Shown here: piece after piece, positions 11,604 through 55,553 of the stretch
Layout: the number at the start of each line of letters is the position of its first letter
Numbering within the stretch: position 1 is the stretch's first letter
NCBI GenBank assembly: GCA_965153355.1
Contig: OZ231126.1
Span: 2,232,001 to 2,296,000, forward strand
DNA from: Flaccisagitta enflata
Taxonomy: Eukaryota
Length of the DNA: 64,000 bases
Direction of reading: 5' to 3'
The notes under the pieces: generated by a model
What the model saw: the letters and a program-made list of their open reading frames with translations, nothing else
Told to the model about the DNA's origin: nothing
Database searches by the model: none
Translations under genes and position numbers: made by a program

Positions 11604-12196
11604 TATTGGGCAACAAATAATTCTAGGATTCAATTTCTAGGCAGATGATGCACCTTTGTCGATTTAAAAAATTCAAAAAAGAGGTTAACCTTTTTCCACT
11701 GACTGAGTAAGCTGCAGTGGAGTCTGAACACATGGTTATTTCGGAGATATTTAACCCTAAGTAGCTCTGAGGCAACCTCAAGCAGCCATAAGACAACCCC
11801 GAGGCAACCTCGAACAACCGTGAACAACCCAGAGCAACCCTGGGGCAATCTCGCACAAGCCCAAGCCACCTGCAGGAAACCCAGAGCAACCCCCACGGAT
11901 TGATCTTACTGATAGTGAGTCACTATTTTACACCACCGGTTATTAGAAAATCACAAATCAATAACTTAAAGTGCTTTAATGTTTGAGCTTTAAAAATTGA
12001 AATTCTATCATGCAAAAGTGCACCTCTGTCTTTGGAATTGCAACACTAGATCTGGTGATGGTTTTATTCTATCCCATGCGATTTTCTAGCAAAAAGAAAG
12101 AATGAATTGGCAGCATTTACATGTATTTTCCAAGAGTAATAAAATGTCTCTGTTGAAAATGTCTTGAATCAAGCTGCCAGTTTTTTTTGTTATGTA

Positions 12197-12586
12197 CAGC
12201 TAAATCCCGCTCTTACTGAATTCATGGTACTTCAAAATCGTATCTGTTATAAGGGGAATTCTGTTAAAGTCAATATAGGAAAACAATGCCGATTCCTTAC
12301 AAGTCGCGTGCGGTTGTTAAGACCAAACGACTAATGGACTAAGAGACTACATGTAAATTGACTTATAATAACTCAAAATAACTTAAAATGACTTAAAATG
12401 ACGTAAAACAACGAAAAAAAGCTAACGGCCACAGACGGACTGACCAACAGACCGACCGACCGACATAGCAGCTCATAGAGTCGCGTGCACGCGACTAAAA
12501 AGAGAAAAGATGAGAGGACTAAGAATTTGCATTCATTATGGGCAGAATACTGTTAGTGGCGAGTCCTAAAGAGTGGGATTCAACTG
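12197..12586. mobile_element. pogo/Tigger-like MITE split by a family A element (~12290-12500)
   Basis: TA|CAGCTAAATCCCGCTC ... GAGTGGGATTCAACTG|TA; same family as 24157, 38173 and 59998. Confidence 0.7.
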
Positions 12587-24156: not shown

Positions 24157-24528
24157 CAGTTACACCCTGCTATACCGTACCCAAGATTAACAGAAATCCA
24201 CCTGTAGTGGATATGAAAGTTAGGTCCCTTTAGCCAATCTCTTTTCATTTCATCTGTTATTGCGGGGATCAACTGTACCTAAACTTTTAAATGAAACTAG
24301 CAGTGCCTTTTGTGCAAATGAGGAAGCATATCCTCAAGTGGGGAAAAAACTCACCGTTTAATCCCGCTCTAACGGATTTCAGAGGATCAATATCTTTTCT
24401 GTTACTGGCGAAATTCTCTTATAACCAATATAAGATATAAAAAAAAACTGAAAAAAATTGACAAGAAATGGCATCTGTTTCAGGCGGACTACCGTTAGAA
24501 GCGGGTCCGTTGGAGCGGGGTTCTACTG
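24157..24528. mobile_element. Two pogo/Tigger-like MITE copies (24157-24275 and ~24355-24528)
   Basis: TA|CAGTT ... ACTG|TA termini with CCCGCT / AGCGGG subterminal motif. Confidence 0.65.
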
Positions 24529-25737
24529 TATGTGAGGGAGGGGGGGGGCATACATTGTGGTTGTGCCTATTTAGTGTAAACAAGGAAGTCATTCAAATTG
24601 GAGGGGGACCCGCCTCGTGTTTTGGTGGGAACTGAGGAATGCTCTTCGTTTGCCGCTCCCTTTGTCAATGAGGAAGCAAATACACGGCTGGAGAAAACCT
24701 TTAAGAGAAGGTTATATCATGATTGAACGGGTGTAAATTGTTTTTTTTTTTCAGCATCCATGCCGACGGAAAAAACATCTAAGTGTCAATGACTGAAAAG
24801 AAGTCGAAAGAGGATGACTTTTTGACGAAAGGAAATCCGTTAAGGAAGTCAATTTACGACTCCGGGGAAAAAACTCCCATGACCATAAACTCGCTTTTCC
24901 GGAAGACGGAGAGCCTCCGAAGCCAACATTCTTTTTTTTCAACAGGGGTCAAAATAATCATTAGACCAAGTAGCGTGCGTCCGCACTTTCAAAAAAGTCA
25001 GGCAGACAGACAGAAAAACATTTTTTTTCTCAAAAAGACACTTGAAATGGCTTTTTACTCTTCCATGTTTCTTCTCTGCTATTCAGAGACATAAAAACCC
25101 GATAAAAAACGACTTTGTTACAGACAGATCGACTGATGGACCAACCGACAGACCGACCAACGGACCGTCGGACCAACCAAAAAGTGGCTTATAGAGTCGC
25201 GTAGCACGCGACCTAAAAGAAGATCTAAGTAACATAGTTCTCTTCCAAATTCGATTACGGAGAGAACTTTGTTTTTGAGAGCATTTGAGAGTCTAAGAAT
25301 TTCGACCACAGGGTAAGAAAAAAACATGTAAGTCAAATTTCACAAAAACCTTGATTTTCCTGCCTTATCTTATGTAATTTGCATATCTAAAGGTACCTGT
25401 GAGGTCAGCTTATGACAAAGATATACACATCAAGTGTCCCTAGAGACAATTTGCCCATGAAAAGTATTTGTAGTTCTTTACTTGTTTAACTTTTGATACA
25501 AAAAGTGGTTTGAAACACTATTCCCCCCCTCCCCTACTGAGTCCGTCGGACCGTCTGGCGTTACGTAACGCAAAATTTTCTTAACGCGATTTTAAAGAAT
25601 TTCTCTCCATTTTGTCTTCCCTTTGTATCGATATTCATATCTCCAATATCTTATTTAGGCATCTTAACATATCATCTTAATTTCTAATATTTTAAGAGAC
25701 TGCATCTATTGGATATCATGTGGCCTTGTTAATCGCG

Positions 25738-28469: not shown

Positions 28470-31400
28470 ATATATGACGTTTATTCACACAAAAAGTGTA
28501 GTAGTACACAATAATAGGGCGAAAAACAGAAAGAAGGAATGACAATGGATTGAGCTAATCTAGAGAGAAAAGAAAAAAAAATGAAAATACAGATGAGAGA
28601 TAGACGAGTTAAGCGGGAGAGTTTAGCAAAATGCTCTCACAAGATTGTCACTGTTGCAAGCTCTTGCTCGATGGATGAAGCCATTGGCGCGTTTGTCGAC
28701 TAGCTCCTCCCAGGTGGGACGGCTGAGTGAGTGCTGAAGGTTGGTGACACTTTCGAAGTATCGATACCCAAAAAGTTTTCGGAAAATGGAGTTGTAAGCA
28801 ACTCTAAGAGAGCGATTTTCGTCCCTGTCCAAAACGCGAACAACTTCCATCCCGTAGGTGAGAAGCGGGACGCAGTGAGTCTCTATGAGCTGTAGCAGAA
28901 CCATGTCGTCTGATCGTCCATCAACGCGCAGAATGGAGTTAAGTGAACGATAAAATGATTTCACTCTTTCAGTGACAGAACAATCGATCTCCGACCGCTC
29001 TTTGGAAATACACCGAGATATTTCCATGTGGTCACCCAATCAATCGGCATGCCATTGAGTGTAGGCTGAAATTTAATGTCAACTGGCTTCCCATAGACCA
29101 TGTTTTTTGTCTTTTTGGCGTTGAGGCAGATATCCCAATCACTACAAAACGAGCTGCATGAGTCCAAAAGTCTTTGCAGGCCTTTCAGTGATGGGGCCAG
29201 GATGCAAATGTCATCCGCATAGAATAGCGCTGCGGCAAAAATGTTTGTCACGAAACAGCCAACGCCGCTCGATTGAAGAATCCGAATCAATTCATCGACG
29301 TAAATGTTATACAAGTTGGGAGAAAGCACACCGCCTTGTCTAACCCCAGCAGTGACATTAAACCATGACCCCAGATGGCCATCCCATTTCACGCGGCATT
29401 GAAGACCTTGATACCATGTAATCAAAATGTCTAAAAAGCATTTTGGAATGTTTCGATCCATCAGTTTGATGAATAGACCCGAGTGCACGAGTCTATCAAA
29501 TGCCTTGGAGGCATCGAGAAATGAACAGTAGACTCGGCTACCATGGTCAACATAATAATTGATCGTCTCACGTAAGCAGTAAAGAGCGTGGCTAGTGGAC
29601 AACTTACGCTTGAAACCAAATTGGTATGATGACGTTTTTAGGTTTTCCGCGAATTTTTCACGTAGAATCAACTCAAAAACTTTAGAGGTCATCGGAGAGA
29701 TTGTGATACCTCTGTAGTTTGAAGTGTCGCTGCTGTTGCCATTCCTATCCTTGATGATCGGGATGATTGTGCCAAAACGGAATTGTTTAGGGACAAACAA
29801 ATGCTTGAGCATATAATTGAATAGTGTTGTAAGTCTCAGCATCAAGATCAATGGTGCATTTTGAAAGTGTTCTGCATGTAAGCCATCGTCGTCAGAGCAC
29901 TTGCCAGGATTCATACCACAGATGGCATCAATGGTGTCATTCAGTGTGATGGAAAATTTGTCACAATCACAGCCTTGGCTATGTAACCGGGAGAATTCCT
30001 CGTAACAGTCATGAAACTGCGAGTCTAAAGAAGAAACTTTACTTTGGTTGTTTGGCTCGCTGTTTTTTTTGAAAGCGGTTTGAAAGGCTAATGCAATTCC
30101 TTCTTTTGAAGTCTGGCCGTCAACAACTGGTGCAAAATTGCTTTTGTCTTTGCTGTAAATGGCACGCCACCACTTCCAAAAAGAAGCAGAGTCTTGGTCA
30201 GTCATGGCGCAGTGCAATCGATTCCAAGCCAATTGATTGGGGACTTTTTTTGCTCGGCGAATCTCACACTTATACATTGCTCTGACGCGTAATCTCTCTT
30301 TGCAAGTAGGACCACTGCAAGGGCGACCTTCATTAATCCAGAGGGTTTGAATTGCCATGGACTGATTTCGCAGCTGTGTAAGAGTCGGTGTCCACCAGTC
30401 TTTTTCAACTCCAGCTGCTTTCCTTGGTAAGCAATTGGACGCCTCCCTGATGGAAGAGATGATATCGTCATACTCCCTTTGCATACTGTCTTTGCACAAT
30501 TCGTTGGTACAGCCACAGCCAATAGAGCATTGACTGACAGGTAGTAACGTTTGCCGTCGCAGCAAATTTTGCTCCAGTGCAGACGCGTAGCGTGAAATGT
30601 CCGCCGTGCTCAGTTTTTTCCAATTGACTGAGTTAGAACTATGGGGTTTATTTCTTATTTGATCTGCCGACTGAATCTGAAGCCGAATGCTCATCAGAAG
30701 AGGAAGATGATCAGAACAGTTATCACCTTCATCGAGTATGCGGTGATTATGAATGCTGCTGTCAAGGAGAGATTGACTCACAATAAAGTGATCGTTGAAT
30801 TTCTTTTGGTCGAGTGAATCATGACAGTATGTGTAGGATGGAGAAGAAATAAAACTGTCGCAATATGCAAACGAGTTTTTAGACATTAACTCTCCCCACA
30901 GTGGATCAAACGGAGACTCTCCTCTTAATTCAGTGTTAAGATCGCCTCCTATTACAATTTCATGATGAGGATGGTCCTCTATGAGTAGATCAAGCATTGA
31001 AATTGCGTCTATGGTTTCATTCATACACTGATCCCGTTTACTGGCATTGAAAAACGGCATGTAAGCGGAGATGAAAAGAATGTTTCAATTTGACGTTTTC
31101 ATTTCGATAGCAACTATGCGTTTGTGTTTGTAGTTGGTAACCGGCGTGATGAGATGGTTGAGGTCTGGTGACCAACAAATGGCAACGCCACCAAAAGGAC
31201 GACCACGGTAGATGCCAGAGGAGATGGCATCTTCCATGCCACTGCATGCAACATACTGAGTTTTAAGCTGCTGAAGTTTAGTCAGTTGCTGATCACTCAG
31301 CCAATGTTCTTGCAGCATCCAAATACCCTTATGCATGTGAACGCAGTCTTTAACGTAATTTGAAGATGTGGAAAATCCATGCAAATTGAAAGATGCGACA

Positions 31401-35827: not shown

Positions 35828-36576
35828 CTATGGCCTATGCTTCCACACATATGGAGAATTTTCTCCTCCTTCTCCTTCTCCTCCTTCTCCTCCTTCTTCT
35901 CCGCCCCCCCCATTTTATCAAATTCCTCCAAATTTTGTCAAATAATGCCCATTTCTGCCAAATTATGCCATATCCTGCCAAATTATACCATATTTTGCCC
36001 TATTCTGCCAAATTCTATCAAATTCTGACAATTTCTACCAAATTTTCCCAAATTCAGCCAAATTCTGCCGAGGAGAAGGAGGAGGAAGAAATATTCCCCA
36101 TATGTGTGTAAGCATAGCTCATCGACCTTTTCAGGGCCGCTGCCCTGCACCCTCTCAATCATAATCACAAACTACTCCAGCAGGGCACGCGTACCGCTGA
36201 CCATCGGACGCTTTTGCGACTATTAATTTCGACCATTAGTATCTAAATCCTATCATGCAAGGAATCAAAAATGATACTTAAAATTCTCAGATATATTCTA
36301 TATTTCTGAATAAGTTCAAAGATGGACTGAATATGACAAATTGAACAATATCTCTCACTATACCTAAACTGAAATTCATGGAAGAGGGCCTTATGAGCCC
36401 TCACTGCCTAGTGGCTACGCGCATCACTCCTACTAGTTTTCACTGACGAGAAGATTGACATTCGTTGACGATCAAGGTTTAGGGTCGCGTGCTTAAAGGC
36501 TTGATTTGAGATTGTCCACTTTTGATTTGAGGGAAAGTGAGTTGTTATCACACCATCATATTCAGGGGAGAAGAAG

Positions 36577-36849
36577 ATGCAGGAAATGCATTTACTCGTG
36601 GCATGCCTTATTTTGACGATGGCTCCATCGGTCCTGACTGAATCTTGCGATTGCGAACGGATCTCTGATGGTTGCAGGATCGTCTCGCCCGCTCCTGAGG
36701 GTTACTGTTGCAAGTGCAGTAAGACCTTCATGGAGGAATGCGATGGCACCGCAATTAAATGTAGCGAAGGCGAAAACTGTCCTGGTCGCTGCGCAACCTA
36801 CAATTGCTGCGTAAGATGTGGTGGAAACTGTGACGGGTACTCAAAGTAA
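36577..36849 (+). CDS. Small secreted cysteine-rich protein (signal peptide plus 14-Cys mature domain)
   Basis: Intact 90-aa ORF; hydrophobic leader MHLLVACLILTMAPSVLT; 14 Cys in ~68 aa; TTCAG acceptor at 36565 just upstream; AATAAA at 36868. Confidence 0.8.
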   Translation: MQEMHLLVACLILTMAPSVLTESCDCERISDGCRIVSPAPEGYCCKCSKTFMEECDGTAIKCSEGENCPGRCATYNCCVRCGGNCDGYSK

Positions 36850-37141
36850 GTTTGCTACAAAAACTGAAATAAACCCTGACTTTAGATTAAATCAACTTAG
36901 TACGTATTCTATCTGTAACAAGGCCGGATACACGGCCACCAGTTGCGGACGGGTGGGCAGGAGCGGAAATGCGCGTTTTCACACAACGGACCGACCAACG
37001 GACCGACCAACGGACCGACGGACGGACAAAGCCACTTTTAGAGTTGCGTGTCCGCAACTAAAAAAGACGAAGAAAGCTTTCTGCTATTTGAGACTTGCGG
37101 AGAATTTTGTATTTCCTTCTTGGGCAATTTTGTATTTCTGC

Positions 37142-37850
37142 GCGGCGGCCCCGAAGAGAACGAAGTCCTATAGAACACAGGGGAACTTTTGTCCGTTCGT
37201 TCATGCGTTTGTCCGTTCGTTCGTGTGTGCGCCCCCCTATCTCAAAACAACCATCTCGAGATGAGGCCTCAATTTTCTTCAATTCCCTTGTTATTCAATG
37301 AGAATTTTTGCGTTTATTTTTTCAATTTTTTGTCAATTTCCCATAATATACAATGGAAATTTTTACATTTTCCCATTATTTTTGTAAATTTTCCATGCTA
37401 TTCAATGATAATTTTGGCAATATGTGGTCAGCGATACCCGTTGCCCTGCTTTGTATACTCTGATGTTAAGTAAAGGGAAGCAGGGTGGTAGCAGCAGAGA
37501 GGCTGATTTGCGGGGCCTAAGGGCTGATTTGAGGTCCATGACAGCTGACTGGAGGCTAGAGGGGGCTGGTTGGAGATCAGATTAGGCTTGACAAGGCTGA
37601 TTCCAGGGCTGACAGGGCCGCTTGGGCCTAAGAGAGCTGATTTGATGCCTGACTGGAAGCTTAAGAGGGCTGACTTGGGTCCTGAGGGATCAGATTGTTT
37701 ATGTGGGCTGATGAGGCTTGAGGGGGCTGATTCCAGAGTTAAGGGATGAGATTAGGCTTGAGAGGGCACTAACGGACAAACGGACGAACTGTCCCCCTGT
37801 GTTCTACAGGACTTAGTCCCCTTTGGGGCCGCTGCCAGAAAAGGTTCGCC
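37142..37850 (+). mobile_element. Family B element(s), subtype B2
   Basis: GCGGCCCCGAAG..GTCCTATAGAACACAGGGG and inverted CCCCTGTGTTCTACAGGAC..GGGGCCGCTGCC, with 21-bp core repeats. Other B2 copies at ~4090-4512 and 43380-44085. Confidence 0.65.
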
Positions 37851-38023
37851 AAGCATTTGGGCGGGAGCGTTAATGCAAAATCGCCAATAAACGTCCAAAA
37901 AAGCAAAGTGTTACGGACGGACCAACCAACGGATCAACCGACAGACAAGTGACATGGCGGGCTATAGAGTCGCGTGCACGCCACTAAAAAAAACTTAGAA
38001 TTTGTTTTTCTTTCTAATGACAG

Positions 38024-38169
38024 GGATGTTGCAACAACCAGCGATTTTTGGCGTGCGGTGTACTACACACAAGCAGGTTTGGCAATCGCACAAGCGAGTT
38101 TGGCAATCCTTTCAGTTGCTGCCGGTGGATTCTCGACTGCGTCAACCTCTCCCGGAAATGGAAATGAAG
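38024..38169 (+). CDS. Internal coding exon encoding a hydrophobic (transmembrane/anchor-like) segment
   Basis: Pyrimidine tract plus CTAAT branch-like motif and CAG acceptor (38021-38023); open frame DVATTSDFWRAVYYTQAGLAIAQASLAILSVAAGGFST...; GT donor at 38170. Confidence 0.5.
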
Positions 38170-38172
38170 GTA

Positions 38173-38336
38173 TAGTTGAACCCCGCTCCAACGAACCCGC
38201 TTTTAACGGAATTCCGCCTGTAACAGATACTAATTTTTGGTCCCTTTAACCAGTTTATGTTGGCTATAACAGAATTCCGCCTATAACAGACAAAATTTGT
38301 TAGTCCTTTAAAATCAGTTGGAGCGGGATTCAACTG
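38173..38336. mobile_element. pogo/Tigger-like MITE (TA TSD)
   Basis: TA|TAGTTGAACCCCGCTCCAAC ... GTTGGAGCGGGATTCAACTG|TA. Confidence 0.8.
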
Positions 38337-40359
38337 TAGTCAAATTTTAAACATAAAGTCTGCATATCAATATTAAAGGATAAAATGCTGCAAGTTGAAG
38401 TTGCCGTAAAGCAATTGAAATTATCGTTATGAGGAGAATAACAAAGCCGGATACACGGCAAGACAGTCGCGGACTGTTGGGCAGGGGCCGTAATGCAAAA
38501 ACCGCTTGAAATTCAAAAATATTTGGGACCAACCTACCGACCGACACGGCAAGGTGTAGAGTCGCGTGACCGCGACTAAAAATTCACAAGGTATAAATGA
38601 AAGTTGGACAACATTACTATTAAAACTATCTGGTATAAGGACAAGAGCCTTGGGAGCTCATAAAGATGTTTAATCAGGACCCTTCAAAACTATCCTTTCA
38701 TTTCTTGAGAAAATACTCCCTTTGCAGGAATTATCATGAAACTTTCAAAATGCTCTGTATCATTTTGAAAAGGGTCACCAATTTCTGTCTACACCTGGGA
38801 TATGCAGACTACAAGAAAACACCTGATAAATATGCTTTTTTATTGCAATGTACTCATATGCATCTGTTTGGAAGTTATCCTGCAATCTCTACTCAAAGGG
38901 AAGTTATCCTGCAATCTCTACTCAAAGGGTCGTCTGCAAAATGTTTGATTGCATAAGATTTAACTTTAATTGATCTTATTTGTGTAATAGGTAATAGGTA
39001 AATTCAGATTATCATTTTCTTCCCTTGATATTGCCCAATTCAGATAAAAGTCAATCCGAAGGCTCCGCTTAACATCACCTAGATATTTGATTTCACCAAG
39101 TTGCATATCCGTTTGCATGTCCGTCTGATCAGACTGATTTGCATATGAAATGTCAATCCTTGCAAGGCAGGGGAAGAAGGAGGGGGGTGGGGGTAGAAAA
39201 CTAACGCGGCAAATAGCCTTCATCCAGGCCACATTTTTGATCTAGTCTCCTCTATCTACAATATCTGGGATGGTTTAGTGAACTATTAATCATCTCTTGA
39301 TCAATATGTCAATCAAGAAACCATTTGATTTTATGCCTCATGTGATGCACCATTGGAGGAAGGTTTCCTTATTATGTCTGAAAACTACCGGTATCTGCAG
39401 CTCAATCCACCCTTTCCGCATTTCTTTGATTTTCACGTAACCGAAACATTTTAGCCTTTTTGATGCCGTTTGCATGGAACCACGATCTAGCCAGGAATTC
39501 TTTAATCAATTTGTAACTACAGAGTCTTCATGTAAGCGAACATTATTTTCTTGGTGCAGTACAGACTTACACTGTTATGCAAAGCGACTATGGTGAGGCA
39601 TGAGAAAGATGAAGAGAAACTAGAGAAATTGAGGCAAAGTATGACCAAGACATGTGTCGATGATTGAAAGAATGAATGATTGATAAAATATTTGAATGAA
39701 TGAATATGCATTTTCAACATGATTGAAGAATATTTCTTTTATTTGACCGATTTGCGCAGTACTAACTAAAGTGTGACCTACGTCCTGCTAACTGATCAAT
39801 GAAAAGCCCGGTTTTGCGGCAAATATGTAATTGCATGCGTGTGGGCAGGGGCAGTGATGTATTTGGGCAGGGACAGTGGCATGGATGAGCAGGAGCAGTG
39901 ATGTGGGTGGGAAGGAGCTGTCATACCAATGGGTGGGAATAGTTCTGATCGGAAATAATCATTTTGGCAGATTTCACATCATCCACAAAAGTGGAAAAAG
40001 AAAAAAGAAAGAATAGGAAATGAATGCCTCGAGTTTCATGATTAAGCGGTAAAACAAAAATCTATGTTTCCAGTTAAAAGGCATTCACCGCTGCGATGAG
40101 AAATATCTTTTCAATTTCGTCAATAAAGAAAGGGTGAATCCGTTTTATAAAAAAAAGAGCAACTTGAAGAAAATATGTTCAGCAAGAAACTTTAAAAAAA
40201 TGGTGATTTTAGGTGATTTTGATTGGTAAAAAGGTTCTGATTTTTGTAAAAAAAAGTCCTGAGAACTACAGATCATTTATTAGTTATGTCGTCAAAGAAT
40301 ACCAGTAAAGGCGGCTCTCGCCGACCGGAAAAAAATCGTAAGGGCTGTTTTGTGTGTAT

Positions 40360-41010
40360 GTGACTCTCACCCTCTCTCTCTCTGTCTCCCTCCCGTGCTC
40401 CCTCCCTCTCTCCTTCCCTCCCCCTCCCTCTCTCTCTCCCTCCCTCTCTCCCTCTCTCTCCCTCCCTCCCTTTCCCTCACCACCCCCCTCTCGCTTTCTC
40501 TCCCCCTCTCACTCTCCCCCTCTCACTCTCCCTCCCCCTCCTTCTCCCTCCCTCCCTCTCCCTCCCTCCCTTTCTCACTCCCTCCCTCTCCCTCCCCCTC
40601 ACCCTCTCCCTCACCCTCTCCCTCCCCCTTTCTCTCCTTTTCTCCCTCCCTCAATCTCTCCCTCCCCCTACCCCTCCCTCCCTCTCTCCCTTCTTTTCCC
40701 TCCCCCTCACCCTCCCCCTCCCTCTCTCTCTCTGTCCCTCCCTCCCCCTCTCTCTTTCCTTCCCTTTTCCTCCCCCTCCCCTCTCCCTCCTACTCTCCCT
40801 CTCCCTCCCTCTCTCCCTCCCTCCCCCTACCCCCTTTTCCTCTCTCCACCCTCTCCCTTCCTCCCTCTTCCCCCTCTCCCTCCCTCTCCCACTTTCCCGT
40901 ACTACTTCTCCCACCCTCCCTATCCCTCCCTCCCTCTCCTTCCCTCCCTCTCCTTCCCTCTCTCTCCCTCCCTCTCCTTCCCTCCCTCTCCCTCCCTCTC
41001 TCTGCCCTCT
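40360..41010. repeat. ~650-bp polypyrimidine (C/T) low-complexity tract inside a family C element (40299 to ~41330)
   Basis: Almost exclusively C and T. Confidence 0.95.
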
Positions 41011-44000
41011 GCTGAACTCATTTTTATAGTTATTTAAGGCTCAAAATTAAGATCGATGAAAAATAAAGATCTTTGAGAAAAATGCGGAAAATGTGAAAAA
41101 ATAAAAAAAGATTAAAAAATTCATAGCGCCTAAAGTATTGGTCCGACAGTGCCCTGATTTTTTCCAGAAGGTGTAAAAAAGTGCCCTCTTTTACCCTGTA
41201 CCAATTTCAACCCCAGCCTCGGGCGAGCCTAGTCGTGACTCAACTTCCTCAAAACATCTCAAGCGAAAATGGAAAAAAATAATTCCTGAGCGAAACTCAA
41301 AAAATCGAAAAACGTTTTTCGATTTTTTTCCCAATAACAAATGAAAAAAAAAAGGTACTGTAATTGGCCGGTCAATTCATTCAACATTTTTTGGTCATTA
41401 TCTAGTCTTTACCGATGCCACTGCGATCGCTACTTCGGACACAATCACCGCCGCCCCTGATTCATGGGTATTAGTTATGAAGAACGATTACACCGCGCCT
41501 CAAGCGCTTCAATTCAAAGACGGAAAGTGGAGCAATTTTCGCGATGGATTTGGTTCCCCCAATCAAGGGTAATTAATTGGGACAAATGATCACAGGGAAA
41601 ATTTAGCGATAACAGCGGCTATCACCGACCGGAAAAAAGTCGTGAACCAAGATTTTTTTTCATTGTCAAGACCCCTGTTTCCTTTTTCTTCTCACTCTCA
41701 CTTCTAGCAATTCAAAGAAGCAATGATTACCTGCCAGACTGGTGTTCTTGCAGTCAAATTAGTCAAAATTTACATTTCTTTATACTTTGGTCATTTTTTG
41801 ACTAGTTGATTTGCCAGTTTGAACTAAGTTTTTGGCCGCGTTGGCTGGCCTGGAGCTTTCCTAAATCCACTAGTGCACTCAATTTGTTATTAGCATACAC
41901 AATTATCCTCTTGGGCATTTTAAAGTTCAAACTATCTTCAACTAACATTTGAGAGTGTTTTATCCGGTCGTTTCCTTGGCATTCTGCGCCTTGATTTTTT
42001 GTGTAAACATTGCTCTCCCATGCATTTTTAAGAAAACTATAACTTGAAAAGTCTGCCGAAAATAAGAAAGAAATAGTGCGCGAAAAAAGTTTACAGAAAG
42101 AACCGTCAAAAAATGTTCTGTATTTATTCTTCTGTTTGAAAATCAAAAAATTGCTTGACCTTAACATTTGTGAAAAGGAAGGGTAATACTCCAATCCTAA
42201 GCTCTTGCTCATGCTCAATATCTCATTTTTAGGAAAAATGCGCAAAACGCGGAAAAATTTTATTCAAATTCTGATTCAAATTCAGAGTTCAAATTCAGAT
42301 TCAAATTCAAATTCAGAGTTTTTTCAAAATCAGATTCAAAACTCAACAAGTCATCCAAGGATCGCACATGGTCAGCGGTACCCCATGCCCTGCTTGGAGT
42401 GATTAGCTGAAGAAGTGGAGTGAGAGCAGGGCAGCGGCCCCAATGGGCCGACGTCCTGTAGGACACAGGGGTGAATTTCCTTACGTCCTGATAGGGCATA
42501 TTCAAGGCCTTAGTAGCAATTTTCCATGATATTCAATGGGAATTTGGCATTTTTTTCAATTTCTTGTCAATTTGCCATGTTATTTAATGGGAATTTCATA
42601 TCTTTCGTAGTTTATCAATTTTTTCAATGGAAAACATGCATTTTTTTGTTTTTTTTTGGTAAATTTTCTATGTTATTCAATGGGAAGTTTGCATATTGAC
42701 ATTTTCCCATGCTATCCAATGAGAATTTGAGGCTTGAGAAGCTAAGGGGGGGGGGGACGGATGGACGGACGGACGTACGGATCGACGTATGGAAATTCAC
42801 CCCTGTGTCCTACAGGACATCGGCCCTTTGGGGCCGCTGCCCAAAAAGTAACTTTCGCCGATACCCATTGTTGGCTTTAAAAGAAAATAGTGGCAAAAGC
42901 ATTAGATGGTCAGTGGTGACCAATGCCTCCAAGTTAGTGTGTGTGGGGGCGAGGTGGTAAGAGGGGCAGCAGCCCCAACAAGTCCTGTGACCTATGCTTT
43001 CACACAAGGGGAATTTTCTCCTCCTTCTTCACCGAAATCTGGAATTTGGGACTCAGAATTTGAGCTTCAAGGCTAGGATTTGAGCCTCGAAGATGGGATT
43101 TGAGCCAAGAGGATGGGATTTGATCCCTAAGGCTGGGATTTGAGCCTCAAGGCTGGGATCTGAGCCTTGACGCTGGGTTTTGAGCCTCATGGCTGGGATT
43201 TGAGTGTCAAAGCTGGAATTTGAGCCTCAAGATTGGGATTTAGGCCTCAAGGTTGGGATTTGAGCCTCAAGACTGGATTTGAACCTTGTGGATAGGATTT
43301 GAACCTCAAGGCTGAGATTTGAGCCTTGCGTTGGGATTTGAGCCTCGAAGCCAGGGGGAATGGACAGAGGAGGAAGAACAGGTCACCCAAGGGCAATATG
43401 TGGTCAGTGATACCCGTTGCCCTGCTTTGAGTGATTGTGAAGTGGAGTGAGGGGAAGCAGGGCAGCGGCCCCGAAGGGGACGAAGTCCTGTAGAACACAG
43501 GGGGACTTTCGTTCGTCCTACCTGAAGAAGTTGATGAGATGCTATAGAGGGCTGACTGAAGGCATTCAAGAGCCTAAACTGAGGTTTAAGAAGGCTGATT
43601 TAAGGCCTGAGAATGCCAATTGGAAGCTTGAGAGAGCTGACTTAAAGCTTGAGAGAGCTGGATTAAGGCTTGAAAGGCCAGAGGACTGATTTGAAGCCTG
43701 AGAGCAATAAATTGAGGTTTAGATGGCTGATTTGAGGCCTGAGAGGCCTACTTTGAGGAATGAGAGGCCAGGTTTGAGGCCTGAGAGGCCATATTTGGAG
43801 CCTGAGAGGCCAGATTTGAGGCCTAAGAGGCCAGATTTGAGGCCTGAGAGGCCAGATTTGAGGCCTAAGAGGCTGGATTTGAGGCCTAAGAGGCTGGATT
43901 TGAGGCCTGAGAGGCCAGATTTGAGGCCTGAGAGGCTGGATTTGAGGCCTGAGGGGTCTGAGGGAGGGGGGGGGACGCACGAACGCACAAACGGACGAAC

Positions 44001-45010: not shown

Positions 45011-46140
45011 AACAAGGCCGGATACACGGCCGGATACACGGCTACCCTAGTCGCGTGCGGGTGGGCAGGAGCAGTGCTGGAGAAGGTCACTAAGGCGTCT
45101 GGGCAGGAGCCACATGCTCAAAAAGCTCAAAAACGCCGAAAAAGTAAATACACTTTTTATTTTTTATAAGAACCTAGTTTATAAGAACATCAAGGCTTCA
45201 AATTACCAAAAAATTAAGAACATCTTAAGAACATATGAAGGCTTAAAATTCTAAAAGAAATTTTTTTTCTAATGATAAAACTTTTGAAATATTGATAAAA
45301 TACTTGAAAATAGAAAATGTACAATAAAATTCTGTTATTTCTCATATAAATGCCATAAAAATATCCTTTGACTTTATAATTTAGTATCAATTTTAGCAAT
45401 TATAAATAAAAATACATTTATTTCTAATAGTTGATATTGAATTAAAAGGTTTACTTTAATCTATTTTTTATCTAGAATTAGGAACGCTTTAAGAACATTA
45501 AAGATTTAATTTTGCTTCAAAAATAAGAACATGAAGCCTTTGGAAAAAAAATGACGTTCTTATGAAAAATAAAAAGTGTAGTCGCAAAAGCGTCAGATGG
45601 TCAGCGGTACCAGTGCCCTGCCTGAGTAGGTTGTGCTTGAAGTTGAGGGGGGAGCAGGGCAGCGGCCTCAAAGGGGTCGATGACTTATGCTTTCACACAT
45701 ATGGGGAATCTTCTTCTTCTCCTCTTGAGATTGGGCCTCTTGGCTGGAATTTGGACCTCGAGGCTGAGTATTGGGCCTCAAGGCTAAGATATGGGCCTCA
45801 AGGCTGGGATCTGGGCCCCAAGGCTGGGATCTGCTTCTCAAGGCTAGGAATTTGGCCTTTAGGCTAGGATTTTGGGCTTTAGGCTAGGATTTTGGCCTCA
45901 ATGCTTAGATTTGGGCCCCAAGACTAGAATTTAGGCCTCGAGACTGGAAAATGAGCCTCGAGACTGGGATATAAGGGGGGGGGGGGACGGAGAAGAAGGA
46001 GGAGGAGAAGGAGAAAATTCCCCATGTGTGTGAAAGCATAGATCATCGACCCTTTCGGGGCTGCTGCCCAAAAGGGGACTGACCGACCGACCGACCGACC
46101 GACATAGCGGGGTGTAGAGTCGCGTAGCACGCGACTAAAA
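45011..46140 (+). mobile_element. Family A element split by a family B1 element (45580-46072) and a TA MITE
   Basis: Head AACAAGGCCGGATACACGGC at 45011; tail (GACC)n plus AGTCGCGTAGCACGCGACT at 46075-46140. Confidence 0.75.
45151..45578. mobile_element. AT-rich Tc1/mariner-type MITE (TA TSD)
   Basis: TA|CACTTTTTATTTTTTATAAGAAC ... GTTCTTATGAAAAATAAAAAGTG|TA. Confidence 0.85.
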
Positions 46141-46849: not shown

Positions 46850-49800
46850 ACATCCCCACCCTAACTATCAACAGATCGACGACTGCACGAATGATGATTC
46901 CCGTCCGGAAAGGATCCACCACCAGCAAATTTTCAACGATCACGATGACGCGGATGGAAACGAGGCGGCGACGAGGAGGTTGAGGCACCCGTTCTGTAAA
47001 AGTTAAGGGAAAGGGGGAAAGGAATCATTTGGAGCACTCCAAGCCTGGGATTTGACTGAAGAGTGGAAAATAATAAGTGGGGGCATACTACTAAACATGT
47101 CATACGAAAGTATTCGTAATAATGACTAAAAAGACCATGTCTAAAACAAACACAACATAAATGTACATGTTCCAAGGAACCAAACAAAACAAGACAAAAT
47201 AAATAAGTTACTAACTATATATAAAAAACGAATCTGCAAAAAGAAAATTAGCAAGCATCAGGGAATCCATTACATCACCTGCGCCTTCTCCATTACAGAG
47301 ATTTACGGTCATTCCGGAAGCTCCAACACCTCGCCAATCCGGGCGAAAGGCGATGAATGATGTCTTCGCTAACGGCGACCGTAGACGAAAGGCGCAGGTG
47401 GTGCAGCCGTCTGAGAATGTATCCTCCCCTAAGGGAAGAAAAAGAAAGAGAAAAATGGGGGCAGATTGATTAGTAAAGTTCTTATCGTACACAGATTCAA
47501 ATTTACCACAAAACCTCAACTTCCAACCCTTCCCAAACCATGATACTTACGCGGGCTTTGCTTTTCGCCAGGCCCCGGGGCGGACGTCCCCCACGCCCCG
47601 GGTAGCGCCCCCGACTTGGCCGGCCTGTCCATCGATGGGATGAGGATGTGATGGTGGATTACGATCCTCAGCGAATGGCGGCGCCCTCCACGCCATGTTG
47701 CAAACAGAAGTTAAATTGAACAGCAACTGGGCGTGGCACCAATCAGCGTTTAGCTGGCGGTCTGATTTTTCCAAGGCCTGGTTCGATTTTTCTTATTTCC
47801 AGGCTTGGGAGCGTCTTTTGCGACAGGATCTGCTGACCGACTTTTTTCTGCAGGAGAAGACGCAGGAGGTGGAGAGGATGCATCGCAATTTGGCGCCAGT
47901 CGAAATTTAGGACGCACAGCGGACGCAGTTTTGAAGTCGACGGCCATAGCCGCCTTGGCGCGTTCCACAGCTTCCTCTTTCTTCTTAGCCTTCATCGCAC
48001 AGGCCTGCTTCTCCGCTTCAAGCTGCTTCTCCAGTTCCACGACCGCTTATTGCCTTTGACTACCTCATTGTCCGCAGCCATTGCTGCTTGACGAGCATCG
48101 TCTCTCTCTTGGATGTTGCGACGAATCCTCTCAAGCTTCCAAGATTTCACGAGCCGCTTCAACTCACATGATTGAGCGACGCAAGAAGTCTGAAGCCTTT
48201 GATAAATTCTCTGTACCACACCAATGGAGCATTTGAGGCCAGGTGAAGAGGTTTCTGAGCAAAATGGACTCGGCGATGTGGTGTCCATGCGCAGGGTCAC
48301 AGGCTGGATCCGACGGGGGAGGCGGGTAGCGAATTTGCTGCAGACCTTGGGCAGACTCGGTTTGCTGACGAGGCGCTACACCAGCTTTAACAGATGCTGA
48401 AGCACCGCCAACTAGTTCGCTTCCTACCGCTGCTTTTGATGGCTGCGAGTGAAAGGAAGACGCTCCTGTCTGCTGACCAGAGACTTGAGGTTGAACAGCT
48501 GACGTCGAAGCACCGCAGGTAGAACCTCCCTTGGTTGCTGCTTTAGCTTTTTTCCAGCTCTCTTGGTCTTCTTCCCTTTTGTTGCCGCTGCCCCAGGCGC
48601 CTGATTCAGTTTCTGGGTTGTTGTATTAACGCTGCTTGGCTTCGACGAACCACTTGAAGCCTGGCCTTTGGGGGTTACTACGTAGGGGCGCCTGGAGGCC
48701 AAGGGGCCTGCTTTTGGAATCTGGCCCTTTTGCTGACTCCGCACATTGTGCGTTTGTGGAGTCTTTCCCCGACGTGATCTCTTCCATTGTTGTGAGGGAG
48801 AACGCCACTTATGTGACCCTGTTGCTGCTGATTTGGGGGATGAACCAATCCAGGGCGCGATTGACGACTTCCTGATGCTGTAGAGCGAATTGCCGCTGAT
48901 GTAGCTGCGGCTGCGTCGAGCACAAATACCGCTGGTGGAGTTGCGGAAGCGTCGACGGAAGTTGCTGCAGATGAAGGTAAAGGTGCATCAGGAGGCTTCG
49001 GAGCCGCATTCTTCCTCTTCGGCGCCTGGACCATGCGACGAACCTCCTTATCATGCCCTCTCCTTCTTTTGCTGCTTTTGGATTTTGCGTTCCAGAGTCT
49101 CCGAGCCAAGCTCTGTTTGATAGGCTTATTGAGCATGAGAGTTTGTTTGTTGCAGCATACTGAAAGTTTTTCAAACTCTTTGAAGAGGAGAGATACTCCG
49201 ACGTCCGGGCTGATGATACGATACCACCAACGCGCCCGCATCCGTTGGTGTTTCTCTTCCGGCGTCGCAGTGTCCACTTCCGGGTCAATGTCTTTCTCCA
49301 CCACCTCCCCCATTCACCAACACCTCCTCCTGTTTCCATCCTCCTCCTCCACTCTTGCTCCATCATTGACCAATCTCTCTCTCTCTTCGCCCCCGCTGCG
49401 TTGACATGCAGCTGCAGACGCTTGATCATGAGACGCTGAGCGACCGGAATCAAGGCAGAATTGGCGAGGCGATGGGCAAATCCACGATGACGACGCTTTT
49501 GTCATGAAGTGTGGATAAGTCTGGTCGCGCCGATTGATCGAGATCCGCCTCTCAATCTCCATCTCTGATGACCACCAATGGAGGAAGCGACGCGGATCAA
49601 CGGCGTGGATGGCTGACGATTTTCCAACGCATCAGCCTTGTTGACGCTTTTTCTTCGCCATTTTTGCGTCGACGACGGAACGAAGGTCGCCATTGAAGGC
49701 TGCCAGCGAGACAGCCTCCTCCTCCGCCCCGAACGACGTCGTGGATGCAGATCCTTCTCGAGTCGAGCCGTCGTTGAAGAGTCGATGGAGATCCAAGGAT

Positions 49801-49950
49801 CCGTACGACGTCGACACGTCGGCCTCTGCCTCGAGACGCTGCTGACGGGACATCTTGACTCCGACGAGCGACTTCAAGATGCGAACTGACTTCGTAGATG
49901 GAATGACGTCGTCAGCGGAAGCTTTGAAATGTTCTCGTATTGAGAACTGA
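46850..49950 (-). pseudogene. Accessory coding region between integrase and 3' LTR, frameshifted, function unknown
   Basis: GC-rich chain of overlapping minus-strand ORFs (49632-50081, 48809-49453, 48678-49313, 48424-48744, 47992-48300, 47750-48040, 47547-47774) separated from pol by an AT-rich spacer. Confidence 0.6.
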
Positions 49951-50199
49951 TAATGGTAAGAACGTAATGGCACACAATATGTACATATAGACAGAGCGAA
50001 TGAATCAGTGTTTTTGTGTAAGTGGAAATGGACAACATAATTGACAAGAGGAAAGATGAAAGCATGGATAATCAGAACCAAATATGAATAATAACAACTC
50101 TTTGTAAATATAACAAGTCAGAGTTTCAATCACTCATATCTATAGTTACTAATGGACAGGCCCATGCGCCTTTTTCTCTCTCTCAAAACTTAGCGTTTT

Positions 50200-51450
50200 T
50201 TATGAGTCCAATTCCAGCCGCACGAAGCTCGTGCCGTCTTTCGTCACGATCTTTCCATCTTGGCGCTGGATGTGAGCCCTCCCGACATGGGCTGATGATC
50301 CTCGATTTCATGACACGTCCTAAACTCCACCAGACGAGGCAGTTGCTGGCCCATGACGATGACTCCTACACAATAACCGCAGCCCCTCGATTCACCATTT
50401 GCTTGCCGTGAAGAAGCGATGAAACATTCCAATTCTCCACGAGCTTCCAAAACGCATCCACACGCCGCTGATTGCGCACGCCTCCATTGAATCTTCGCGA
50501 GTCGGCGCTGGTGAGCGACGCCTTTGTTGCACCAGATCTAGAGGGGCGGGCTGATGTTGATGGATTGAGGATATGATTCGGTGTAGAGGGCCTCAGAGTC
50601 ATTTGGATTTATCATGAGCTTTCGTCAGAGGATTTGCGATTGAGAATTCCTTCAACCGACAACGGCAGTGTTGAAGGTCGACGTTGAGGATGGCGCCAGT
50701 CGAGATGGAAGCAAGATGGCGCTTAAAGAGAGCGACGATTCTCTCCCACACCCTCCATAGTGGGGTGTTCTCGGCGTGATGAAATCCCACCGAAGGCCGC
50801 GCTGCTGCACTGAAGTTGACAGCTGTTCCAAGCTTTCATTTCCTTCTTGAGGATATTATTGGCGCCAATTAGATTCGTTCCGCAATCTGACGTGAATCGG
50901 CGGTCCTGGGCGCCTTGCTGCAAAGCGGATGATTGCATTTACCATCGCATCGGCTGGCATGTTGAAGAGCAATTCCACATGGACGGCGCTGCGGACACTA
51001 AACAGGTTGAACACTGCGATCCACACCTTATGATCAGTACGCCTGTTCATCTTTACAATGAAATGCCCCATGACATCCAATCCAGTCTCTGCAAAATGAC
51101 AGGGGCAGGATTGACGCGATTTGATGGAAGATTGGCCATTTGCTGATTTGCGTTCTTTTTAAAGTTCTCCTGGCATCTGAAGCACGTGTTGACGACGCTC
51201 TTGACAGCCTGAAGACCTTTTGTAATCCACACAAATTGGCGTAATTGGCACAATGTATGCTTTGCACCCGCGTGAAAATCATTGCGATGATAATGGCGAA
51301 TTAATGATTTCACATGCCTCGTTTTTTGGCGGCAGGATGAAGGGAAATTTAGCGCCATGTGCGATGTCGGCGTTTTCCAATCGGCTGCCGACGCTTAATG
51401 ATACCGCCATCGTCGACTAAAGGATTCAATTTCCGCATCTCCTTATTTTT
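50200..51450 (-). pseudogene. BEL/Pao integrase (fragmented)
   Basis: HHCC-type segment LIRHYHRNDFHAG...CFRC, QQMANLPSNRV, RSAVHVEL, SDCGTNLIGA, GVWERIV, TPNHIL, AFWK. Confidence 0.9.
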
Positions 51451-51759
51451 TATGATGAAGTCATGACGGCTTTCTGGTTTTAAAGACTTTTCCCAACTCC
51501 AATTGTTCGAAGACGTCGGAATAATGATGCCGCTGCATTGACTTGACGAGCTGTTTGCGCGCCTCCTCCAAAACGCCTTGCGTCACTTCCGGTTTGGGAA
51601 GGAGATCCTCTGCTGCTCGTGTCTTCGCCCTTGGATACGTCTCCACCTTTTGATTGCGATGAGAACTACAAATGATGATCCGCAACTTATGCATCCATTT
51701 TCCCGAGAAGCTGCTGCAAGAAGTATCGTTGGCCAGCCACTTCTTGTTTCTTTTTCACT

Positions 51760-52632
51760 TTCAGCCACATACAGCTGCGACTTGTGCAGAAATAGGGCAC
51801 GTCGCGATGTTCGTCTTTGGCCATTGATCTTCGGGAAGACGCAAATATGCAGGACTGTGATGGAATTGACGCCATTTTTCGTCTTCATGGGCCTGGATGC
51901 CTAGGCTGCAGTGGTCCGGGTTGTTTGACGAGTCAACCCAGCGCCACTGTTGAGGATCAGACCCACTGTGGATCTTGAAGAGACGATTGGCGAAGAATAC
52001 AGGCCTCGGTTTTGCCGGATTGTAAATCATCTTCAGTGCAGATTCAGAGTCAGGACTAAAAATCTGGATGGCTAAAGATTGTCCAAGGATGGCCCTTCCG
52101 ACGAAGCGTTTGAGCTGCACTGCTTACGGATACACCCCTGACCCTCGTGGAACGCTGTTGGTGATGTGAGAAGCACGCGTTTTGGATTGAGTGGAATGAC
52201 GTGAGATTTGGAGGCAAGGAATGAAATGTGAACATCCCCATCTCGATTGACTTGACGTCGATATGCAACTGCTCCATATCCGCTCTTTTTGGAGCCGCAC
52301 GCAAAGATCTCGGACACTTCCGCAATGTCGTTGCTGTCGACGCCGCCATTCCACCAGCGTTCACCTCGGTATTGCTGTAGAAGAGGCCAAGATGAAGTGT
52401 AGCGGAAGAAAGATTCCTCGACGCTTTCTTCCAAGGGCGATCCCATCCCACTTCCTGTGGACGACAGAGCTGAAGATGTCGGCCTACCGATGTATGCACT
52501 TTGACTCCAAAATCCCAATGGATCATAAAGTTTGGCTTTCATGGAGACCAATTGATGAGGTGTTTTTGCTCTAAGAGTTTTGAATTCCTCGTCGCAGATG
52601 AAGATGAAGACGCCTTCCGCCCCTGAAGCCAT
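51760..52632 (-). pseudogene. BEL/Pao RNase H region (fragmented)
   Basis: KVLGVSW, LYDPLGF, SKKSGYGAVAY, FLASKSHVIPL, DSESAL, FFANR, WRWVDSSNNPD. Confidence 0.88.
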
Positions 52633-52639
52633 GAGACGC

Positions 52640-53460
52640 CCAACACCTTCGTCGGCGCATCGTCTTGCTTATCTGAGATGGGAATTGGCACGTTGGGATC
52701 TCCATCCATCAATTGCCGCGCGTTACTTTTCCACTTCACGAGTTCCATCCCGCCTTCAGCCATCGCTGCCACTGCATCCACCTTCAATTGCAGTGCTTCG
52801 TCGACCGAATCCCCACCCCCACTTCCGTCGTCGACGTAGAGCCATAACGGATAAGGTCGTAGACGTTGTAGGGATACTTGGGCCGGATTACTTCAGCATG
52901 CTTTCGGACGGTGAAAGATGTGACAAATGAGCTAGATTGACTGCCGAAGACATGAGATAGGAACAGATTCAAGATTGATTCTCGAAGGGTGCGATCTTTG
53001 AACCAGAAGAATCTGAACAAATCGGCGTCATCAGTATGGACCCGGATTTGGTGGAAAAATGCTTTTATATCGCACATAAAAGCCACCTTCCATTGACGAA
53101 AACGCATTAGAATGTCCATCAAGCTGTTCATCAAGTTGGGACCTCCGACGAGAAGATCATTTAATGAAATCCCATCGGTCTATGCTTGCGCATCGTGACA
53201 TACGCGCGTTTTGCCGCGCAATTCAACAATATGAAGCGGCAAGTACCAGCGCTGCTTCTCAATGCCGTCGTAAAATTAGTCGCTGTCAATTTCAATCGCC
53301 ACTCCCGTCTAGTAAAATTTCTCGATCTCACGGAAGACTCTTTCTTTGAAGGCTGGATCACGCAGCAAACTAGTTGGTTGCCGAGCCGCTTCATCGCAGT
53401 AGGTCGTGGATTCTCTCTTCTCAGAATTTCCATGATCTTTTCACGATGAAATTCCCATGT
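52640..53460 (-). pseudogene. BEL/Pao reverse transcriptase (fragmented)
   Basis: GPNLMNSLMDILMRFR, DIKAFFHQIRV, FRFFW, HVFG, and YVDD in a shifted frame (~52830). Confidence 0.92.
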
Positions 53461-53861
53461 AATGGGAGCAATGTACTTTACCGCAATTGGGCAAAAATAT
53501 GTCTTTTCCTCTAACATTTTATACGCTCTGATATTCTCAAGAGAATCACCCATCTCCTCTTGCGAGGCGACTGATGATGCAAAGTCGTGGTAGAAGATGC
53601 GGTCAATGTTGCTGTTGAGGACGCGATTGTCGAGGATGCGATCGATGTTGTCGTTAAGGACACGGTCGTCCGTTGCGATGGCGCTGATCGATGCAATATC
53701 TCGTCCTCTCTTCCCCGTCTTTCCGCATACCGTCCAACCGAATAGACATCTGAAGCAAGTCAGAGATCCTGAAGGCCCTCGGCGGATTTCTTGAGCGACG
53801 GCGGCATCCGCATGCGCCGCTCCGATGATCATCATCACACCGCCTTCAGCTTCCGGAAATC

Positions 53862-54200
53862 TTATGTCTCTGATGTGAGGTTGGTCAGATAGATCGCGGA
53901 GAAAGGAGGAATATCGCGTTCACTCGTTAACAAATCCCACCAACTATGGGTGGTATCGACGGCGACATTCCCTCGTCGACCCGATTGCATGGTGAATGAT
54001 GTGATGAAACGATCCTCAACAACACGATTTCCCACAGTAATCACCGTCATTTGCACTGTTTTCGTTGGAATCAGAAGACTGCGAATGACATTGGTACTGA
54101 TCACGTCGCGATCAGCGCCTGAGTCGATCATAGCGTATATAGTCCTCTGCGCTCCCGAAGAATTGTTTATGATAGTCACTGGAACGATCGGACGGACAAC
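53862..54200 (-). pseudogene. Aspartic protease
   Basis: VRPIVPV...YAMIDSGADRDVIS catalytic DSG motif directly after Gag. Confidence 0.85.
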
Positions 54201-54245
54201 GTCGTCGAATGAAGAGACGGACCGCGACGTTGCCGTCGCCGCCAG

Positions 54246-55541
54246 TCATGCCGTGGCGTTAGGAGAGATTACTTCCGTTGGATTGGCTGCCTCCGCCGTC
54301 GACGGAGCTGTTGGTGCTGCTGCAGCCGCATCCTCTGACTTTTTGAAGGGAGCCAGCGGTACTTTATTTCCCTGCTTATTTTCTCCTTTCTTCTCTTCCT
54401 TTTCTTCTTTCTTGTAGGTGCGCCCGTGGAGAATAGTCGCGTGCCGCTTCTTGCAGATCTGGCAAGTTGGTCTGTTCGCGCACCCTTTGGCGTTGTGTCC
54501 TGGCGCGAGACAGTGGAAGCAAAGACGACGAGACATGATCTTCTGAACTCTCGCGTCCACTTCCAACTCTGACAACTGATGACACTCTTCCGTTTGATGC
54601 ATTCCACTGCAGACGTTGCAGCGGTCCGTCGACTGCACTTTTTGCTTGCCATTGGTCAAGGCGTCCTCGTATGAAGATGGCGCCTCTTTTTCTGTCGTTG
54701 CAACTGCTGCCACTGATGCCGTTTTGCAGCTTGCGCCTTTGTTGCGCTGAATCACCGCCCATGTTTCAATCATATGAACCAAGTTGTCGAATGAGAATAA
54801 CTGTCCATTTTGGGCTGCTTCATGTTGCTTTTCCCAGAATTTATCCGCAAGATGAGGGACCCTCTTATTGAGGATCTCCTGCAGCAGCTCGTCGCGATAG
54901 CATTGTTGCACTTCTCCACAGGTCCTCGCAATCTTCTTTGCTTTTTGCAACCTTGCAGACAAATTGAAATGCCTTGCATGGTCGGCCGACTGGATCTTCG
55001 CCTCCGCGACGATTTCGTTGAACAGCGCCGCAATGTTGCAGCGCCTTGCCATAAAGACGACGTCCATTTTTGCGAAGGCGTCGTCAATTTCTCCTCTTGC
55101 TGTCGCTTCAGTTGCATCAATCGTCGCAGTTTCAATGATCTCCTTTGCCGGACCAGCAAACCACTTAGGCAATTCCAATAAGATGTCCATTTGCGTCAAG
55201 CCTTCATGCTTCTCAGCATCCTTGAACTTCCTCTTCCACATCATAAAGTCGGTGGACGAAAGCTCCTGCAGAGGCTTCTCGGGTCTTGCTCTCTCCAACG
55301 CTTTGAGGCCGACCTCCCTTGCTCGCATGAGATCGTTGTACGCCGCTCTTTCCAAAAACATGTCCAGAGCCGGATTGTTGGGCATCTGAACGTGGACTTC
55401 CGGTTGACGGGCCACTTGATGATGCTCCACCTGATGATACGCTGGAGGTTGTTGGGTCAACGCGTATTGACCCCCGACTTTGACCGGAGATCTCTTTTTG
55501 GTGGTTTTTACGCTCCACCCAACTTCTTCTTGCTGATTCAT
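54246..55541 (-). CDS. BEL/Pao Gag core with three Zn knuckles
   Basis: CNVCSGMHQTEEC, CFHCLAPGHNAKGC, CQICKKRHATILH in a 431-aa open frame. Confidence 0.92.
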   Translation of the reverse strand: MNQQEEVGWSVKTTKKRSPVKVGGQYALTQQPPAYHQVEHHQVARQPEVHVQMPNNPALDMFLERAAYNDLMRAREVGLKALERARPEKPLQELSSTDFMMWKRKFKDAEKHEGLTQMDILLELPKWFAGPAKEIIETATIDATEATARGEIDDAFAKMDVVFMARRCNIAALFNEIVAEAKIQSADHARHFNLSARLQKAKKIARTCGEVQQCYRDELLQEILNKRVPHLADKFWEKQHEAAQNGQLFSFDNLVHMIETWAVIQRNKGASCKTASVAAVATTEKEAPSSYEDALTNGKQKVQSTDRCNVCSGMHQTEECHQLSELEVDARVQKIMSRRLCFHCLAPGHNAKGCANRPTCQICKKRHATILHGRTYKKEEKEEKKGENKQGNKVPLAPFKKSEDAAAAAPTAPSTAEAANPTEVISPNATA

Positions 55542-55553
55542 CTGTTGTTGTGA

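Follow-up and report, generated by a model that had tools for sequence, protein, structure and literature searches.

The window analyzed here, a stretch of 64,000 nucleotides from Flaccisagitta enflata, is transposon-dense eukaryotic DNA with a G+C content of about 40%. Its forward strand carries at 36577..36849 a coding ORF of 90 codons plus a TAA stop, which was read from the sequence and is backed by relatives found with phmmer and by an AlphaFold (AF2) model. The ORF starts with the ATG at 36577 and ends in ...DGYSK, with the stop occupying 36847-36849. Residues 1-23 form a signal-peptide-like N-terminus, MQEMHLLVACLILTMAPSVLTES (Kyte-Doolittle 1.81), that aligns with the leaders of the relatives, and residues 24-88 form a Cys-rich domain of 65 residues, which closes with CGGNCDGY and is followed by Ser, Lys, and the stop. 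The ORF contains 15 Cys in total, 14 of them beyond residue 22, in agreement with the preliminary description of the locus, which spoke of a 14-Cys peptide. Two motifs in the interval 36868..36891, an AATAAA at 36868-36873 (19 nt downstream of the stop) and an ATTAAA at 36886-36891 (37 nt downstream), are the likely polyadenylation signals of a one-exon transcript; the first of these had already been placed after the stop by the preliminary description, all of whose sequence statements were confirmed. The other ORFs of the window that were scanned and gave Pfam family matches were all derived from retroelements. The locus is probably a single-exon gene for a secreted cysteine-rich peptide belonging to an unnamed, widespread domain family.

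A phmmer search with the 90-aa ORF (P0001) returned 92 relatives at E≤1e-3, and for nine of these the E-value was 1e-10 or lower. The best match, P0002 (6.3e-17), aligned in four stretches, P0004, P0005, and P0008 were among the further hits, and in relatives of 568-600 aa the domain is present in four tandem copies at the C-terminus. Many other relatives, of 84-115 aa, have the layout of the ORF itself, which is a signal-like peptide followed by a single domain. Among the longer relatives that were scanned, GDPD Pfam matches were found in P0034, P0042, and P0080 at E≤0.01, that of P0034 being above the curated cut-off; the domain also occurs after WSC domains, and one relative has a weak, sub-threshold aerolysin match. 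In an alignment of 30 sequences, nine Cys are invariant (C24, C26, C33, C45, C47, C55, C62, C68, and C78), C85 is conserved in at least 90%, Y88 is nearly invariant, and the Gly-rich motif is kept. Searches with the ORF gave no family in Pfam and no match in the PDB by sequence, and word-based searches at near and longer lengths found no close homologues. Likewise, no paralogues were found in the window by tblastn of P0001 or of all 92 relatives, as all 134 HSPs fell on the ORF exon (exon 1).

The family has been in print since 2018. Cordes and Binford (2018; PMC6299612) describe a ~70-residue "novel, unclassified cysteine-rich domain" located C-terminally in aquatic SMaseD/PLD-like proteins; most "Aquatic clade" SMaseD/PLD homologues end in between one and four such domains. 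The domain is characterized there by '10 perfectly conserved cysteine residues' and, in addition, by a Gly-rich motif and a Tyr that is conserved at its C-terminal end (Figure S2, where the domain has a terminal GGGDCGGY), and it is given as having no homology to any known family. Judged from its sequence, the 90-aa ORF is a stand-alone copy of the same domain: it has the 10 conserved Cys, the Gly-rich motif, and the terminal Tyr, and its similarity to the PLD-linked copies reaches an E-value of 6e-17. In contrast to the PLD homologues described there, the domain stands here alone behind a signal-like peptide and lacks an enzyme domain. The ORF further departs from the domain as described in being of the sub-type CP..C....CC in its second half, in having two further Cys (C44 and C81), and in the Ser-Lys that follows the Tyr. 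The gene is a new stand-alone member of a family published as unclassified.

The two further Cys, C44 (36706-36708) and C81 (36817-36819), lie beyond the family's 10 + 2 Cys. One metagenome locus, L008, has Cys at both positions, in the contexts ..TCCKC.. and ..CIECNGDC.., which hints at an extra, seventh disulfide that may have arisen more than once or may mark a sub-family. Other loci extend the range of contexts in which the domain is found. On the high-G+C contigs of L014 (62% G+C) and L019 (71% G+C) it lies behind PLD-like domains, and these contigs probably come from bacterial hosts. The domain of L018 is preceded by a long protein, in which an HExxHxxGxxHE stretch looks astacin-like by eye, and the range of fusion partners would, from these sequences, be wider than PLD enzymes. 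In the low-G+C, eukaryote-like loci L001 and L005 the open frame either lacks a Met or meets a stop shortly before the first CDC; the signal peptide of these loci is probably encoded on a separate upstream exon, whereas leader and domain share one exon in the window.

The AF2 model of the 90-aa ORF, built from 30 sequences, has a pLDDT of 83.7 and consists of four strands and a short helix. Foldseek of this model against the PDB returned nothing at E≤0.001, a wide search with VIA returned one chain with a best Z of 2.1, and the best ESM Atlas score for P0001 was 0.79, which is a sub-threshold lead. The model is a confident one, and in these searches the predicted domain has no convincing structural neighbor among solved structures. 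By analogy with its fusion partners, the domain is probably a binding or targeting module for a surface.

To establish where proteins of this family end, we read the frame to its end at 24 loci found in a scan of metagenome contigs. Two of these run off the contig, which left 22 readable loci, and three pairs among the 24 are near-duplicates, so that the independent loci are fewer than those counted. The stop directly follows the terminal Tyr in 18 of the 22, it comes after one or two more codons in three, and in one the frame reads on. The 92 proteins gave a related picture: 30 end exactly at the motif and 25 within eight residues of it (55 of 92 together), 28 have longer tails, many of which are further copies of the domain, and nine lack the strict motif. 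Short endings of the type ...Y-K or ...Y-A-K, comparable to the ...Y-S-K of the query, occur in P0053, P0015, P0081, and locus L014. Because its stop sits at the usual family end, the 90-aa product is, by sequence, a complete and canonical family member. This usual end and the AATAAA downstream support the soluble 90-aa product of the preliminary description well, and with both in place any expression of the gene very likely yields the 90-aa secreted form.

Clearly hydrophobic C-terminal tails were found in two of the 92 relatives, P0028 and P0014 (Kyte-Doolittle 2.34 and 2.79). P0028 has a TM-like stretch and a basic tail after the domain. In P0014 the first extra residue is Trp and the tail contains a strongly hydrophobic stretch; part of this tail (NW.EMT...) is shared by P0025 and P0012. 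P0007 is 95.7% identical to P0014 over 69 aa and ends three residues after the domain, where P0014 reads on; the pair could reflect a stop-codon difference, two isoforms, or an artefact of ORF calling, in which case P0014 may have been called through a stop. As far as these sequences indicate, the domain can thus occur in tethered form, but such cases are rare.

The one striking feature of the locus lies at the stop of the ORF. The TAA lies within a donor-like GTAAGT hexamer at 36846..36851 on the forward strand, with TCAA|GTAAGT on the exon side, exactly as the preliminary description had stated in placing the stop within a perfect donor. In the window as a whole, on both strands, GTAAGT encloses 27 of 2133 TAA triplets (1.3%). 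By a generic weight matrix, whose frequencies serve for ranking only and are not calibrated on introns of this organism, this donor ranks 54 of 6534 GT sites (top 0.8%). The preliminary description had proposed to look in paralogs for the same donor-embedded stop; at the 21 loci of the metagenome scan with a terminal stop, no stop lies within GTRAGT, and the stop and its preceding base form a GT at one locus only, which is L014 on its 62% G+C contig. An AATAAA within 57 nt after a TAA is found for 64 of 1066 triplets on the forward strand and 80 of 1067 on the reverse strand (~6-7%); a terminal exon should have such a signal, and it is only if the gene is constitutively spliced that its presence has to be put down to coincidence.

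About 1.2 kb downstream, a pyrimidine-rich tract at 37995..38023 on the same strand ends in a cag acceptor-like site with its AG at 38022-38023. With the same generic matrix this site ranks 83 of 7634 AG sites (top 1.1%). At a threshold chosen post hoc (at least 75% pyrimidine and Y at -3), it is one of two among 301 AGs within 6 kb, and an acceptor this good is expected by chance because there are some 300 AGs within that distance. The AG at 37810 has the top matrix score; it lies inside a repeat and, by eye, leads to a stop after two codons, and it was set aside as an acceptor. The candidate second exon (exon 2, 38024..38169, forward strand, 48 codons + 1 base) is a phase-compatible, weakly hydrophobic segment recognized in the sequence. 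Its first base, the G at 38024 after the AG, restores Lys with the AA carried over from exon 1, and the frame then reads K-DVATTSDFWRAVYYTQAGLAIAQASLAILSVAAGGF...; the phase agreement stated in the preliminary description is therefore correct. The frame reads DVATTSDFWRAVYYTQAGLAIAQASLAILSVAAGGFSTASTSPGNGNE and then continues, open for 75 codons in all, to the TAA at 38247-38249, and the GT at 38170-38171 that would close the exon is a weak donor, ranking 477 of 6534 with the generic matrix. Among 6024 AG sites outside retroelement ORFs, the fixed frame stays open for at least 48 codons after 12.1% and for at least 74 codons after 3.7%.

The preliminary description had assigned a hydrophobic helix to exon 2. 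An in-frame hydrophobic stretch is indeed present, but its character as a membrane helix is borderline: its peak, a Kyte-Doolittle 19-mer mean of 1.68, is close to the usual threshold of ~1.6 and is reached by 15.1% of 491 random stop-free segments of 48 aa from the window. The stretch has two Gln inside and no flanking Lys/Arg. It owes its length to a recent tandem duplication of 21 nt (38068..38108, forward strand, two copies, 90% matching), found by repeat analysis, which supplies ~7 of its residues. The exon-2 peptide, searched as region 20-67 of a 93-aa open frame, had no homologue in a collection of 5.8 billion proteins at the lengths searched, and blastp and tblastn found no relative of it among the 92 proteins (including their tails) or the 24 loci (best E 2.0). 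The frame matched no Pfam family, and its best ESM Atlas score was 0.83 (holin clusters), a sub-threshold lead. Of all these items, only the GTAAGT over the stop is unusual when taken singly; neither the acceptor nor the ORF nor the helix stands out.

The DNA between the candidate donor and acceptor, as well as that beyond exon 2, is largely made up of repeats. A SINE-like dispersed repeat (36912..37066), with many copies in the window at 66-88% identity, begins 63 nt past the ORF stop. It is followed by an element bounded by inverted repeats (37135..37844; 37135-37200 vs 37776-37841) with internal satellite-like units of 20-21 nt, and by the 3' part of a SINE-like repeat (37889..37990), whose terminal A-run lies 33 nt before the acceptor. 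The segment 37991-38170, with the acceptor and exon 2, is an island free of repeats that has transposon copies on either side. With these copies discounted, the acceptor would lie, by arithmetic, ~200 nt from the donor, and because of this short gap a former or present intron between the two sites is plausible. On its far side the island is limited by a MITE-like element (38171..38338) with terminal inverted repeats and flanking TA, whose inverted ends were recognized by eye and which has copies at 24353-24530 and 12195-12277. The T in the GT at 38170-38171 already belongs to the MITE, and so do the final 26 codons of the exon-2 open frame. As read by eye, an empty MITE site would continue the frame for ~13 more codons to a TAA at 38374-38376, overlapping an ATTAAA at 38372, and would resemble a small terminal exon.

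The exon-2 frame translates the start of the MITE (38171-38338) as IVEPRSNE. P0031, one of the relatives, shares 95.5% identity with P0025 as far as GGGDCKG, after which it ends in LVEPVRSN where the terminal Tyr would be; this comparison of peptides suggests that a MITE of this family has landed in the P0031 gene, at the TA of the codon for the conserved Tyr. Further repeats are found at some distance from the peptide gene. A 707-aa open frame on the reverse strand (28964-31084; RVT_1, E 2.7e-31) belongs to a LINE-like retroelement ~5.5 kb upstream of the gene, and a run of long open frames on the reverse strand at ~47700-57100, with a G+C content of ~0.5, is assigned to a BEL/Pao-type LTR retroelement because one of its frames (52075-52668, reverse strand) matches the Pao retrotransposon peptidase domain Peptidase_A17 (E 5e-12). 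A CT-rich low-complexity block of 640 nt occupies 40364-41002. Arrays of 20-21-nt units (..GGCCTGATTTGAGG..-like) were found at 43058-43346, 43680-43961, 45731-45967, and 37490-37760, and this unit also fills the interior of the inverted-repeat element in the presumed intron.

A search of sequencing runs with 36520-36900 gave no RNA run that contains this segment. Expression of the locus was assessed with one polyA RNA run from the same study, of which ~6% was read (12.2 million records). Over 36100-40300 we obtained 16 reads, 15 of which lay only partly on the stretch, and all of them fell on repeat segments. Depth was zero on both exons, and there were neither joints nor molecule ends. The gene is without detectable expression in this one polyA sample, and its reads speak neither for nor against splicing.

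We explain these observations most readily by a gene in which 36577-36849 would be complete in one exon, encoding a cleavable signal peptide and one disulfide-rich domain of ~65-70 residues. Elsewhere the same domain is C-terminal, single or in tandem, in secreted enzymes (SMaseD/PLD-like and others) of aquatic animals and some bacteria. Translation would end two residues past the family's terminal Gly-Tyr, the transcript would be polyadenylated after the AATAAA at 36868, and it would be by coincidence that a GTAAGT overlaps the stop and that an in-frame ORF follows 1.2 kb further on, amid transposons. Several observations weigh against this single-exon reading: the stop lies in a perfect GTAAGT, a top-1% donor that is expected at 1.3% of TAA triplets; the first top-1% acceptor downstream outside repeats is in phase and opens 75 codons; this acceptor is only ~200 nt from the donor once transposon copies are discounted; and, judged by its sequence, a membrane-anchored relative exists in P0028. 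Alternatively, most transcripts would end after the AATAAA at 36868 while a fraction would be spliced from 36846 to 38024 before cleavage, with Lys in place of the stop and a hydrophobic segment that tethers the domain to the membrane; we consider such a secreted/membrane switch unlikely. Exon 2 would then have arisen recently and within this lineage, by exonisation of intergenic DNA beyond the canonical stop. The donor hexamer shifts the balance from a single exon to a switch by a factor of perhaps 15-25, and acceptor, ORF, and helix combined shift it a few-fold more; the polyadenylation signal lies between donor and acceptor, as a switch would need, the acceptor and exon 2 form a repeat-free island between transposons, and the TM-bearing P0028 suggests that the domain can work tethered. 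P0028 and P0014 resemble the proposed membrane form in carrying a hydrophobic stretch after the same domain, but their tails are unrelated to exon 2. Exon 2 is moreover without a homologue, its hydrophobic stretch is borderline in strength, in composition, and against random segments, the length of that stretch depends on the recent duplication, and the MITE has replaced whatever followed 38170. The family also provides a low prior for a switch (none of 21 loci with GTRAGT at the stop, and two to four of the 92 tails hydrophobic), and the donor was noticed post hoc among many possible coincidences.

Two other explanations have to be weighed along with these. If the gene had two or more exons and the intron 36846-38023 were always removed, then the product would be a membrane-bound protein, and the same donor, acceptor, and phase would be accounted for. 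Any phase-2 intron that starts with GTAA or GTGA produces an in-frame stop when left unspliced, and under constitutive splicing the stop in the donor would be an automatic by-product of a phase-2 GTAAGT intron. It would however be a 6-7% coincidence to find AATAAA only 19 nt inside an intron that is always removed, the family overwhelmingly ends at this point, and each weakness of exon 2 that counts against a switch applies here as well. Since the AATAAA and the family-typical stop make the 90-aa form very likely, we regard constitutive splicing as highly improbable. It is also improbable, though less so, that the ORF is an intact remnant in a transposon-dense region, silent or decaying, from which neither isoform is made. 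The lack of any coverage of exon 1 by the polyA run, the surrounding LINE, Pao-type, and MITE/SINE copies, and the lack of a close orthologue or paralogue in the databases searched or in the window would fit such a copy. Against it, the conserved hallmarks of the family (10 Cys, Gly-rich motif, terminal Tyr) are undamaged, the ORF still begins with an ATG and a signal-like leader and is followed by a polyadenylation signal, and one RNA sample read to 6% cannot show silence. The single-exon gene for a secreted peptide therefore remains our preferred reading.

The switch between secreted and membrane immunoglobulin mu-chains is a known isoform switch that works through intronic polyadenylation. 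On paper, the locus is organized like that of the IgM mu-chain: a putative 5' splice site closes the coding part of the secreted form, a polyadenylation signal comes shortly after it, and a candidate hydrophobic exon follows in frame; in contrast to the mu-chain, the arrangement is here predicted from sequence, and the hydrophobic exon is weak and unconserved. It is doubtful, though conceivable, that a secreted-peptide gene has recently gained a membrane-tethering exon from intergenic DNA flanked by transposons, with a strong splice site over the ancestral stop competing with the ancestral polyadenylation site. If true, the locus would give an early-stage view of a secreted/membrane switch like that of IgM, newly arisen in an invertebrate. 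A real splice would mean that the locus shows how an isoform switch arises from a single-exon gene by exonisation, and transcripts that bore the switch out would make it a fresh variant of a well-known mechanism. For the domain family itself, which is widespread and has neither a Pfam entry nor a solved structure, the combination of a confident model with no convincing structural neighbor indicates that it merits a name and a structure.
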